Shown: piece by piece, positions 5,056 through 20,947 of the stretch | How positions within the stretch are numbered: position 1 is the stretch's first letter | Layout: every line of letters starts with the position of its first letter | Source of the DNA: Escherichia coli | GTDB taxonomy: Bacteria; Pseudomonadota; Gammaproteobacteria; Enterobacterales; Enterobacteriaceae | Direction: 5' to 3' (one strand) | DNA: 64,000 bases | NCBI RefSeq assembly: GCF_050920415.1 | Contig: NZ_CP169309.1 | Notes under the pieces: model-generated | What the model saw: the letters and a program-made list of their open reading frames with translations, nothing else | Databases searched by the model: none | What the model was told of the DNA's origin: nothing | Position numbers and translations under genes: made by a program

Positions 5056-6741
5056 TTGAAGAAGGTTTGGCTTAACCGTTATCCCGCGGACGTTCCGACG
5101 GAGATCAACCCTGACCGTTATCAATCTCTGGTAGATATGTTTGAGCAGTCGGTCGCGCGCTACGCCGATCAACCCGCGTTTGTGAATATGGGGGAGGTGA
5201 TGACCTTCCGCAAACTGGAAGAACGCAGTCGCGCGTTTGCCGCTTATTTGCAACAAGGGTTGGGACTGAAGAAAGGCGATCGCGTTGCGTTGATGATGCC
5301 TAATTTATTGCAATATCCGGTGGCGCTGTTTGGCATTTTGCGTGCCGGGATGATTGTCGTAAACGTTAACCCGTTGTATACCCCGCGTGAACTTGAGCAT
5401 CAGCTTAACGATAGCGGCGCATCGGCGATTGTTATCGTGTCTAACTTTGCCCACACTCTGGAAAAAGTGGTTGATAAAACCGCCGTTCAGCACGTAATTC
5501 TGACCCGTATGGGCGATCAGCTATCTACGGCAAAAGGCACGGTAGTCAATTTCGTTGTTAAATACATCAAGCGTCTGGTGCCGAAATACCATCTGCCAGA
5601 TGCCATCTCATTTCGTAGCGCCCTGCACAACGGCTACCGGATGCAGTACGTCAAACCCGAACTGGTGCCGGAAGATTTAGCTTTCCTGCAATACACCGGC
5701 GGTACCACTGGTGTGGCGAAAGGCGCGATGCTGACTCACCGCAATATGCTGGCGAACCTGGAACAGGTTAACGCGACTTATGGGCCGCTGTTGCATCCGG
5801 GCAAAGAGCTGGTGGTGACGGCGCTGCCGCTGTATCACATTTTTGCACTGACCATTAACTGCCTGCTGTTTATTGAACTGGGTGGGCAGAACTTGCTTAT
5901 CACTAACCCGCGCGATATTCCGGGGTTGGTAAAAGAGTTAGCGAAATATCCGTTTACCGCGATAACCGGCGTTAACACCTTGTTCAATGCGTTGCTGAAC
6001 AATAAAGAGTTCCAGCAGCTGGATTTCTCCAGTCTGCATCTTTCTGCAGGCGGTGGTATGCCTGTTCAACAAGTGGTGGCTGAACGTTGGGTGAAACTGA
6101 CCGGACAGTATCTGCTGGAAGGTTATGGCCTGACCGAGTGTGCGCCGCTGGTCAGCGTTAACCCGTATGATATTGATTATCATAGTGGTAGCATCGGTTT
6201 GCCGGTGCCGTCGACGGAAGCCAAACTGGTGGATGATGATGATAACGAAGTACCACCGGGTCAACCGGGTGAGCTTTGTGTCAAAGGACCGCAGGTGATG
6301 CTGGGCTACTGGCAGCGTCCGGATGCCACTGATGAAATCATCAAAAACGGTTGGCTACACACTGGCGACATTGCCGTAATGGACGAAGAAGGTTTCTTAC
6401 GCATCGTTGATCGCAAAAAAGACATGATTCTGGTTTCCGGTTTTAACGTCTATCCCAACGAGATTGAAGATGTCGTCATGCAGCATCCTGGCGTACAGGA
6501 AGTCGCGGCTGTTGGCGTACCTTCCGGCTCAAGTGGTGAAGCGGTGAAAATCTTCGTTGTGAAAAAAGATCCATCGCTTACCGAAGAGTCACTGGTGACT
6601 TTTTGCCGCCGTCAGCTCACGGGCTACAAAGTACCGAAGCTGGTGGAGTTTCGTGATGAGTTACCGAAATCTAACGTCGGAAAAATTTTGCGACGAGAAT
6701 TACGTGACGAAGCGCGCGGCAAAGTGGACAATAAAGCCTGA
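5056..6741 (+). CDS. fadD: Long-chain-fatty-acid--CoA ligase FadD (561 aa), probable TTG start
   Basis: ORF track 4990..6741; mature N-terminus [10 protein letters not shown] corresponds to TTG at 5056; AMP-binding motif [12 protein letters not shown]. Confidence 0.9.
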
Positions 6742-6760
6742 GCGTTAAGTCAGTCGTCAG

Positions 6761-6787
6761 ACGCCGGTTAATCCGGCGTTTTTTTTG
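6761..6787 (+). terminator. Rho-independent terminator of fadD
   Basis: CGCCGG-TTAAT-CCGGCG stem-loop followed by TTTTTTTT. Confidence 0.75.
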
Positions 6788-15623: not shown

Positions 15624-15770
15624 TTATCACTGATCGTAGATGGCGCAATTTCTGCGCCATCGCAAAAAAATCCTCCGTGATGCTTGTCACAAATCTTGCC
15701 CTCCTGATGTTGTGCTATGCTTTTTATCAGCGACTAACCCGCTAATGCAAAACAGATAAGTGAGGAAACA

Positions 15771-16019
15771 ATGGGCATTCTGTCATGGATTATTTTTGGG
15801 CTTATTGCCGGTATTCTGGCGAAGTGGATCATGCCAGGTAAAGATGGTGGTGGATTCTTTATGACTATCCTGCTGGGAATAGTCGGTGCCGTAGTCGGCG
15901 GATGGATCAGCACGCTGTTTGGCTTTGGTAAAGTCGATGGCTTCAATTTTGGCAGCTTCGTGGTTGCCGTTATTGGTGCGATTGTCGTGCTGTTTATCTA
16001 CAGAAAGATCAAAAGTTAA
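15771..16019 (+). CDS. yeaQ: GlsB/YeaQ/YmgE-family small membrane protein
   Basis: ORF track 82 aa; Gly-rich double TM sequence. Confidence 0.8.
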   Translation: MGILSWIIFGLIAGILAKWIMPGKDGGGFFMTILLGIVGAVVGGWISTLFGFGKVDGFNFGSFVVAVIGAIVVLFIYRKIKS

Positions 16020-16077
16020 CGCGTAAATTGCACAAAGGCTGCACACAGGCAGCCTTTGCTATTTTTTAGATGTGACG

Positions 16078-16152
16078 TTACCACCATCCCAACTCAGTGC
16101 CGAGAACGACAATAATCGCTACGCCCATCATAATAATCGTTGTTTTTTTCAT
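16078..16152 (-). CDS. yoaJ: Small membrane protein YoaJ (24 aa)
   Basis: Reverse-strand ORF MKKTTIIMMGVAIIVVLGTELGWW, preceded by GGAGCA SD-like sequence; not in ORF track (too short). Confidence 0.6.
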   Translation of the reverse strand: MKKTTIIMMGVAIIVVLGTELGWW

Positions 16153-16154
16153 CT

Positions 16155-16253
16155 TTATGCTCCCGGGGCAGCATAGCCGCCAATAAAAAACCATGCTAAA
16201 AATACGACCGCTGTAATAAAGATTACAACCGGAAAAATAATACCGATTCGCAT
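16155..16253 (-). CDS. yoaK: Small membrane protein YoaK (32 aa)
   Basis: Reverse-strand ORF MRIGIIFPVVIFITAVVFLAWFFIGGYAAPGA; stop 3 nt before yoaJ ATG. Confidence 0.6.
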   Translation of the reverse strand: MRIGIIFPVVIFITAVVFLAWFFIGGYAAPGA

Positions 16254-16285
16254 GTTATCACCAATCAAAAGGATGTGAATACGCC

Positions 16286-17311
16286 TCAGGAATGTAGCAC
16301 TGAATGCGCGACAAAAGGTGTTTTCTGTTTGTGTTTTTTCTCCTGATACATCGCGATATCGGCAGCATGCAGGGCGCTGTCTGCATCGGTCGTTTCAGGA
16401 TCGACTTCTACTATGCCAAGACTGGCACCAGGATAATACAAATCAACATCACCTAAGTGATATTCTCCGCGTATTTGCTGTTGAATACGTTCTCGCAGCG
16501 ATGGAATATCCGCATTCTCATTGTTCAGTGAAACAACCAAAAACTCATCACCGCCGAGACGACCAATAACTTCGCCATTTTGCTGGAGCGTATTAAGGCG
16601 CTCGCCAACCTGAATAAGAAACAGATCGCCACTATTATGACCAAAACGATCATTGATTAATTTGAAGTTATCCAGATCGATAAATGCGATCATTATCTTA
16701 TGGTTAAGATGCCGGGCGAGGGAAAACAGCGTCGTCAGATTTTCAAAAATCGCCCGCCGATTTGGTAACCCGGTTAACGAGTCGGTATACGATTGCGCAA
16801 TCAGCGCGGCATTGGCTTCGCGCAGCTGTTCTACCAGCGCCTCTTTTTGAATATATTGTGCAATCAGTCCGGCGAATAACTGCAAAACCTGTTCCGCGCG
16901 TTCACTCCACTGGCGCTTCTCACTGCTGGCGGCGCAAAGCGTGCCATAGAATGATCCATCCGGTAAGTGAATTGGCGTGCTCAGAAATGTGGTGATGCCA
17001 AGATTGCGTGCCGCAATACAGTCGCCCCAACGGTCGGGGACTTCATCGCTGAAAAAGCAGTTTTCATCAATGGCGCGTTTGCATAACGAGTAATCCCACG
17101 AGACGGTAAAATTCTCCGGGATGTGCATTTTCTGGCTGTTACGGGCAAACATTATATGCTGCAGGCGCGCTTCGACATCCACTTTGGTCAGGTAGGTTGA
17201 TTCCATATCAGTGACCATTTCCAGCATCTCCAGAAGCTGTCGGACCAGACTTTCCAGTGACTGTTCTTTGGCAAGGGATTGCGAGACGCGGGCGATAATC
17301 TGATCTGACAC
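16286..17311 (-). CDS. yeaP: Diguanylate cyclase with GAF domain (about 341 aa), probable GTG start
   Basis: ORF track 16286..17440; intact GGDEF motif (RLGGDEF); start trimmed by expected length. Confidence 0.8.
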   Translation of the reverse strand: MSDQIIARVSQSLAKEQSLESLVRQLLEMLEMVTDMESTYLTKVDVEARLQHIMFARNSQKMHIPENFTVSWDYSLCKRAIDENCFFSDEVPDRWGDCIAARNLGITTFLSTPIHLPDGSFYGTLCAASSEKRQWSERAEQVLQLFAGLIAQYIQKEALVEQLREANAALIAQSYTDSLTGLPNRRAIFENLTTLFSLARHLNHKIMIAFIDLDNFKLINDRFGHNSGDLFLIQVGERLNTLQQNGEVIGRLGGDEFLVVSLNNENADIPSLRERIQQQIRGEYHLGDVDLYYPGASLGIVEVDPETTDADSALHAADIAMYQEKKHKQKTPFVAHSVLHS

Positions 17312-20842: not shown

Positions 20843-20947
20843 ATGAACGATCAAATGTTCGTTGAGACACTGATTATCACGTCATCGTTTTTTGTTATTG
20901 CTGTTGTGCTGGTTTTGTCCGTTCTGCTTATTGAACGGACAGGCTAG
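20843..20947 (+). CDS. yoaI: Small membrane protein YoaI (34 aa)
   Basis: [37 protein letters not shown] read from sequence; not in ORF track. Confidence 0.6.

Follow-up and report, generated by a model that had tools for sequence, protein, structure and literature searches.

The small Escherichia coli genes yoaK and yoaJ were reportedly first described by Hemm et al. in 2008, and they now figure in the K-12 reference annotation, both counting as established small proteins in the literature covered here. In K-12 MG1655 they lie between dgcP (yeaP) and yeaQ, separated by 2 nt, with the start of yoaK at K-12 position 1878773 and that of yoaJ at 1878874, and RNA-seq data from K-12 have placed them in a three-gene yeaP-yoaK-yoaJ operon (PMC4620388). 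As to the products, YoaJ has been described as integrally membrane-associated (PMC4597795), and the passage of that paper which cites Fontaine et al. 2011 reports its type II topology to be experimentally confirmed, while tagging of the chromosomal yoaK gene gave a low-level signal in stationary phase for a protein that was called uncharacterised (bioRxiv 10.1101/511675). Furthermore, both peptides are cleaved in vitro by purified RseP, in vivo cleavage having been inconsistent, and the RseP screen in question counted YoaK among the small membrane proteins of type II (PMC10470546). A paper from 2022 lists both yoaK and yoaJ as genes of unknown function, and neither is mentioned in a review on small membrane proteins from 2025.

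Among characterised small proteins, the nearest counterparts of YoaK and YoaJ are found in the MgrB-PhoQ and AcrZ-AcrB pairs, in which MgrB and AcrZ are comparable in size, in having a single transmembrane helix and in their enterobacterial distribution, but they are not homologous to YoaJ or YoaK, and the likeness is purely one of analogy. The same is true of YoaI, a single-helix protein of the inner membrane whose gene lies 4.7 kb from yoaK and yoaJ. YoaI has no sequence relation to either peptide and is described by a separate NCBIfam model. For YoaI, both the target and the regulation are known, since it binds and activates the sensor kinase EnvZ, the gene of which is not a neighbour of yoaI (PMC11429745), and it thus illustrates how a peptide of this kind is likely to act by way of a larger membrane protein.

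Here we describe the yoaK-yoaJ locus in a 64,000-nucleotide stretch of the E. coli contig NZ_CP169309.1, which derives from a non-K-12 strain and is referred to as the window in the following. Its relevant features are collected in the table below.

Features of the yoaK-yoaJ locus and the yoaI gene, with positions counted from the first letter of the window
Feature	Position	Strand	Description
yeaQ	15771..16019	+	convergent gene for a GlsB/YeaQ/YmgE-family membrane protein; neighbour, outside the operon
GC-rich hairpin, 10 pairs	16033..16058		common to the convergent yeaQ and yoaJ genes; from terminator scan and RNA fold
yoaJ	16078..16152	-	ATG...TAA; 24-aa single-helix membrane peptide; b4675 orthologue
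Shine-Dalgarno sequence GGGAG for yoaJ	16160..16164	-	embedded in the Pro-Gly-Ala end of yoaK (codons 30-31), 7 nt ahead of the start codon of yoaJ
yoaK	16155..16253	-	ATG...TAA; 32-aa single-helix membrane peptide; b4676 orthologue
Shine-Dalgarno-like sequence GGTGAT for yoaK	16257..16262	-	in the dgcP-yoaK spacer, 4 nt ahead of the start codon of yoaK
dgcP (yeaP)	16286..17311	-	soluble GAF-GGDEF diguanylate cyclase; first gene of the operon; from RefSeq and Pfam
yoaI	20843..20947	+	34-aa small membrane protein; from RefSeq and NCBIfam

The two tiny reverse-strand ORFs that an earlier note on this DNA had singled out are real and encode exactly the peptides given there, MRIGIIFPVVIFITAVVFLAWFFIGGYAAPGA for YoaK and MKKTTIIMMGVAIIVVLGTELGWW for YoaJ, and we can conclude, in line with what the note had proposed, that they are yoaK and yoaJ, two E. 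coli genes already known and annotated. This identification follows from their identity to K-12, from equivalog matches in NCBIfam and from the RefSeq names found at the same coordinates. Compared with K-12, neither YoaK (b4676) nor YoaJ (b4675) has a single amino-acid difference, and the one nucleotide difference in yoaK and the four in yoaJ are all synonymous. Of 5426 complete E. coli genomes, 5418 match a query of about 1 kb that covers the locus, and the best match, NZ_CP169399, is 100% identical over the 1001 bases of the query (window 15700-16700); the features annotated under this match are named dgcP, yoaK, yoaJ and yeaQ, and yoaJ, yoaK and yoaI are placed at exactly the coordinates which they occupy in the window. 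Against NCBIfam, YoaK scores 69.1 bits with the NF033821 model (equivalog cut-off 32), its residues 1-32 falling on model positions 1-32, and YoaJ scores 60.4 bits over the full 24-residue NF011343 model (equivalog cut-off 54). The latter model is narrow, since the Enterobacter-type YoaJ orthologues score 51.3 bits and hence end up just under its cut-off of 54. The 34-aa ORF that the earlier note had named yoaI is likewise present, on the forward strand and under that name, scoring 76.6 bits with NF041475 (cut-off 45) and differing from the K-12 protein in a single residue (V18 for A18).

In an alignment of 14 chromosomal and phage members of the YoaK family, the residues G4, F7, P8, A15, W21 and F22 are invariant and G26, Y27, A28 and P30 nearly so, and all of them are found in the window YoaK; precomputed matches for the relatives of YoaK cite Pfam PF28021. 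YoaJ, for its part, is characterised by an M-[KR]-K-T-T N-terminus and a G-W-W C-terminus that are kept in nearly all of 25 loci, apart from a Kosakonia locus (L023), which has KST, and Enterobacter wuhouensis (L011), which has G-C-W.

Two details of the initial description of the locus need adjustment. The separation between the two ORFs had been given as 3 nt but is actually 2 nt (AG), since the last base of the yoaK stop codon is at 16155 and the first base of the yoaJ ATG at 16152, and the absence of both genes from the ORF track, although true, is solely the effect of a length threshold, as both appear when the minimum is lowered to 20 aa. The GGAGCA reported ahead of yoaJ is indeed found at 16158-16163 within CCGGGAGCATAAAGATG. 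In the ORF listing with a 20-aa minimum, both genes are extended to upstream TTG or ATG starts, but the longer forms (a 37-aa yoaK starting with TTG and a 38-aa yoaJ starting with ATG) can be discarded, since conservation of the added stretches does not reach beyond E. coli.

Hydrophobic mini-ORFs are common in this DNA, the window holding 16 ATG-ORFs of 20-40 aa with a GRAVY above 1.2, and an SD-like motif is located upstream of four of the 16, three of these four being yoaJ, yoaK and yoaI. That yoaK and yoaJ are more than chance ORFs is evident from their conservation across genera, which is of the coding type. Such conservation had been proposed as a check in the earlier note, and both genes display it clearly, in the form of third-position variation and a low pN/pS. 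The sample was drawn from collections with one genome per species and comprised 26 dgcP loci, in which DgcP identity runs from 99% down to 48%, and both ORFs are conserved in Escherichia, Citrobacter, Enterobacter, Lelliottia and Pseudenterobacter. yoaK is found in 23 of the 26 loci and has exactly 32 codons in all 24 sequences (the window and the 23 loci), and yoaJ is found in 25, starts with ATG or GTG and has 24 codons, or 25 in Kosakonia. Variable columns at codon positions 1, 2 and 3 number 11, 8 and 30 of 31 in yoaK and 13, 9 and 21 of 23 in yoaJ. In the annotated frames, which are free of in-frame stops, pN/pS is 0.12 for yoaK and 0.26 for yoaJ, as compared with 0.24 for dgcP across the same species, and since these values are pooled over non-independent pairs with synonymous sites near saturation, they should be read as indicative rather than precise, even though their direction is unambiguous. 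The other frames give pN/pS values of 0.9-3.5 and contain many stops, with the exception of the antisense frame that shares its wobble positions with the genes; the low antisense values (0.26 and 0.42) are the mirror effect expected from these shared positions and do not indicate an antisense gene. yoaK and yoaJ are in other words genuine coding genes under purifying selection.

The arrangement of the genes is that of a compact operon. A gap of 32 nt separates dgcP from yoaK, and along dgcP-yoaK-yoaJ a terminator scan revealed no terminator before the hairpin behind yoaJ. This hairpin folds with -18.6 kcal/mol (z = -3.2), none of 200 shuffled sequences being as stable, and because it has a T-run on the plus strand, serving yeaQ, and an A-run on the minus strand, it is probably a bidirectional terminator which closes the operon. 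A promoter scan found sigma-70-like sites to be no more frequent, and in fact fewer, than in shuffled sequence, and the sole candidate for an internal promoter upstream of yoaK was rejected, as it would start transcription inside the gene. yoaK and yoaJ are the two final cistrons of the dgcP-yoaK-yoaJ operon, whose transcript probably ends at the hairpin shared with yeaQ.

Within such a transcript yoaK would be translated from its own GGTGAT site, and in nearly all of the loci from other genera a motif of the GGTGA, GGTGG or GGGGA type is found at the corresponding position. Translation of yoaJ would start from the GGGAG in the end of yoaK, which is probably made accessible or used again by ribosomes that reach the yoaK stop codon. 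The block CCNGGRGCA followed by a stop codon and ATG or GTG is kept in 21 of the 22 listed loci with both genes, the exception being a Pseudenterobacter locus (L021) with CCTGGGGTA (Pro-Gly-Val). As to the distance from the yoaK stop to the yoaJ start, Escherichia and Citrobacter have +2 nt, in Enterobacter, Lelliottia and Pseudenterobacter the start follows the stop directly (0 nt), and in the locus L030 the two genes overlap by 4 nt (-4, ATGA). With the Shine-Dalgarno sequence embedded in the final codons of yoaK and a conserved near-zero spacing, this geometry suggests that translation of yoaJ is probably coupled to that of yoaK. Kosakonia and Enterobacter sp. EA-1 have a yoaJ with its own SD after dgcP and lack yoaK upstream, from which it follows that yoaJ translation does not need yoaK, and furthermore that the two genes are separable and that linkage to dgcP is more widespread for yoaJ than for yoaK.

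The products themselves would each amount to little beyond one transmembrane helix with a positively charged N-terminus in the cytoplasm, i.e. a type II arrangement. R2 is the sole charged residue of YoaK and is followed by 30 uncharged residues, and YoaJ has K2 and K3, a 16-residue apolar stretch and then E20, so that for both peptides hydropathy and the positive-inside rule fit a single pass with the N-terminus in and the C-terminus out. YoaI appears to have the opposite orientation, given that its conserved Glu31 resides in a cytoplasmic C-terminal tail. With merely two residues of YoaK and about five of YoaJ reaching the cytoplasm, the site of action is most likely the inner membrane itself, where the peptides would engage a larger membrane protein. 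By analogy with other characterised small proteins, this most likely happens through intramembrane helix-helix binding. Taken as a whole, it seems highly probable that the known genes yoaK and yoaJ are distal cistrons of the dgcP operon which are probably translationally coupled and encode single-helix peptides acting within the membrane.

A further perspective on YoaK is offered by its relatives in phages and prophages. An exhaustive HMMER search with YoaK yielded 25 representatives, and three divergent ones among them belong to the immunity regions of prophages, where a CI/LexA-like repressor immediately precedes them and cro/cII-like genes lie opposite, whereas a fourth is found downstream of a GGDEF gene like its E. 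coli counterpart. By tblastn, a YoaK-like ORF for which no CDS is annotated was detected in the lambdoid phages HK106, mEp234 and mEp506, and in HK106 and mEp234 it is flanked by cI and hicA and forms part of the unit annotated from pRM to Timm; in a Klebsiella phage, a YoaK-like ORF has been mis-named 'CI transcriptional regulator'. Scanning viral contigs brought up 92 relatives of YoaK, 80 of which were kept, and since 26 of these 80 turned out to be the host dgcP-yoaK flanks at provirus edges they were left out, leaving 54 genuine phage or prophage loci. In 46 of the 54 a CI-type repressor gene lies directly upstream on the same strand, mostly at a distance of 15-60 nt, and encodes either a protein with HTH and Peptidase_S24 domains or an HTH protein of 131-137 aa. 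The phage yoaK genes comprise 34 distinct DNA sequences with 17, 11 and 28 variable columns of 29 at the three codon positions and a pN/pS of 0.27, their products pass the NF033821 cut-off with 54.9-67.8 bits, and the prophage copies are named 'YoaK family small membrane protein' by PGAP. YoaJ, on the other hand, has no match in the phage collection, and no yoaJ-like partner is found beside phage YoaK.

With cI immediately ahead of them and the immunity terminator behind, the phage YoaK-like ORFs take up the place which in lambda belongs to rexA-rexB, an example of genes co-transcribed with the prophage repressor. RexA and RexB are 144-279 aa long and have no sequence similarity to the 32-aa YoaK-like peptide, and an exclusion function for the YoaK-like peptides would be purely hypothetical. 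The position of the phage relatives nevertheless suggests a role that is expressed in the lysogen, and a tentative, rather improbable reading would be that YoaK has a phage function at root, as a membrane peptide co-transcribed with the repressor and made in the lysogen, which for instance blocks superinfection or alters a host membrane protein, and that the chromosomal yoaK is a copy which was domesticated and came to lie between dgcP and yoaJ. This is in agreement with the prevalence of CI-type repressor genes directly upstream, with the mEp234 and HK106 ORFs being part of the pRM-to-Timm unit, and with the phage copies being under purifying selection and scoring above the NCBIfam cut-off for YoaK, as well as with the occurrence of dgcP-yoaJ without yoaK in two lineages. 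It is in poorer agreement with PHROGs and PADLOC giving no significant match for either peptide, the phage YoaK copies included, and with conservation being stronger in the chromosomal yoaK, which is fixed in several genera, than in the phage copies, features which a host function fits equally well; among the searchable papers, none was found that connects YoaK with prophages. We consider it possible, if rather doubtful, that the YoaK family at large consists of membrane peptides of 31-34 aa in enterobacterial temperate phages, encoded directly 3' of CI-type repressor genes, probably co-transcribed with them and made in lysogens, where they may act on a conserved component of the host inner membrane (e.g. 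in superinfection exclusion), the chromosomal yoaK being a domesticated relative.

The notion, put forward in the earlier note, that these small proteins modulate a neighbouring membrane sensor finds no support in the locus. DgcP has GAF and GGDEF domains spanning residues 17-330 of its 341 residues (1e-40 for Pfam GGDEF) and is devoid of any transmembrane or hydrophobic segment, the maximum 19-aa Kyte-Doolittle value being 1.12, and yeaQ encodes a small stress membrane protein and not a sensor, so there is no membrane sensor beside yoaK and yoaJ. Reasoning from neighbourhood is moreover left unsupported by YoaI, which acts on an EnvZ encoded elsewhere, and by the relatives of YoaK in phages that have no diguanylate cyclase. 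The nearest workable version of the idea is that YoaK and YoaJ are dedicated partners of DgcP which tether or regulate it at the membrane and thereby shape local c-di-GMP signalling, and a DgcP-related role would then concern mainly yoaJ. The linkage to dgcP is certainly both tight and old, given that yoaJ follows dgcP in all but one of the sampled loci down to the lowest DgcP identity and yoaK in all but three, that the gene order is the same in L030 and 26 probable Klebsiella loci, and that the three genes are co-transcribed in K-12. Even so we regard such a partnership as unlikely, since DgcP has no segment of its own to place it in the membrane, just 2-5 residues of the peptides are exposed on the cytoplasmic side, the location of DgcP, and the 54 phage loci carry YoaK-family genes without any GGDEF gene, and since YoaI demonstrates that the gene for the target of a small protein need not adjoin it. 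The occurrence of YoaK-family genes in phages that have neither DgcP nor YoaJ indeed argues that YoaK is independent of DgcP.

Finally, YoaK and YoaJ are small, very hydrophobic and of type II and in this respect resemble Hok or Ibs toxins as well as signal peptides, RseP cleaves both in at least some assays and both were put in class II (PMC10470546), and phage YoaK copies adjoin HicAB or HipA-like toxin-antitoxin genes, but that they should be type I-like membrane-damaging toxins, or signal-peptide-like debris cleared by RseP without a regulatory role, is very improbable in view of the facts that Rfam finds no RNA family, and hence no antisense RNA, in the interval (although novel antisense RNAs would escape it), that chromosomally encoded RseP cleaved neither HA-MBP fusion (PMC10470546), that the two genes are distal cistrons of a housekeeping-type operon and not isolated cassettes, and that purifying selection in YoaK is directed at specific residues (the ten invariant or nearly invariant positions given above), which favours a specific interaction over generic hydrophobicity.

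What is added here to the two established genes, then, is an explicit test of their coding status across genera and a description of the conserved geometry by which yoaJ is probably coupled to yoaK. There are furthermore two clues to function, namely that the linkage of yoaJ to dgcP is wider than that of yoaK, and that the YoaK family is common to temperate phages, where it belongs to the repressor operon. The latter relatives provide a modest but testable lead towards the function of YoaK, since a phage-borne relative expressed in the lysogen would suggest a phage-related phenotype for YoaK.

A CI-type repressor gene lies directly upstream of the YoaK-like ORF and on the same strand in 46 of 54 genuine phage/prophage loci (L036-L089, which are IMG/VR viral contigs; see also L028, L029 and L031). 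The encoded peptides are 31-34 aa long and under purifying selection, and a yoaJ-like partner was found in none of the 54 loci. In the lambdoid phages HK106, mEp234 and mEp506 the family is represented by a 32-aa ORF flanked by cI and hicA within the annotated pRM-to-Timm immunity unit, and none of these three phage records has an annotated CDS at this position. In Klebsiella phage ST974-OXA48phi18.2 the YoaK-like ORF is itself labelled 'CI transcriptional regulator', and the real HTH repressor, found upstream of it, carries the label 'putative repressor Cro'; the locus is probably mis-annotated.

Features located in the phage records and in the window
Feature	Location	Strand	Remarks
YoaK-family ORF, HK106	NC_019768 30461-30559 (L032:2501-2599)	minus	32 aa, MRIGIVFPILVFIVAMGFMAWFIIDGYATPSG
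YoaK-family ORF, mEp234	L034:1562-1660		32 aa
YoaK-like ORF, ST974-OXA48phi18.2	L033:2480-2599		39 aa, GTG start
ORF antisense to yoaJ	window 16072-16176	+	34 aa, GTG start
sRNA family sroD (RF00370)	window 6700-6785	+	full-length Rfam match, 115 bits
yoaI	window 20843-20947	+	

A host-type dgcP-yoaK pair is furthermore present in 26 IMG/VR provirus contigs (L035, L090 and L091-L114), which probably derive from Klebsiella and whose DgcP is about 55% identical. In most of them the sequence breaks off precisely at the stop codon of yoaK, which looks like a provirus-boundary effect, perhaps arising because YoaK is counted as a virus-associated gene. It should also be mentioned that YoaK-family genes are carried by some plasmid records of Citrobacter, Klebsiella and Enterobacter (plasmid collection hits H41-H55); at least four 'plasmid' records with such matches, of 4.8-5.4 Mb, are probably chromosomes carrying a wrong label.

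Within the window, sroD is the sole Rfam match, and yoaI, with eight nucleotide differences from K-12 over 105 nt, is more divergent than yoaK or yoaJ and encodes Val18 versus Ala18 in K-12. One frame antisense to yoaJ is open in nine species with a pN/pS of 0.42; a gene on this strand was rejected, the open frame being read as a mirror effect of shared wobble positions.

As for the host loci, neither yoaK nor yoaJ is found at the dgcP locus of Symbiopectobacterium (L024). In Kosakonia cowanii (L023) and Enterobacter sp. EA-1 (L027) dgcP is followed after 100-200 nt by yoaJ with its own Shine-Dalgarno sequence, yoaK being absent, and since these two loci keep dgcP-yoaJ without yoaK, the linkage to dgcP is wider for yoaJ than for yoaK.
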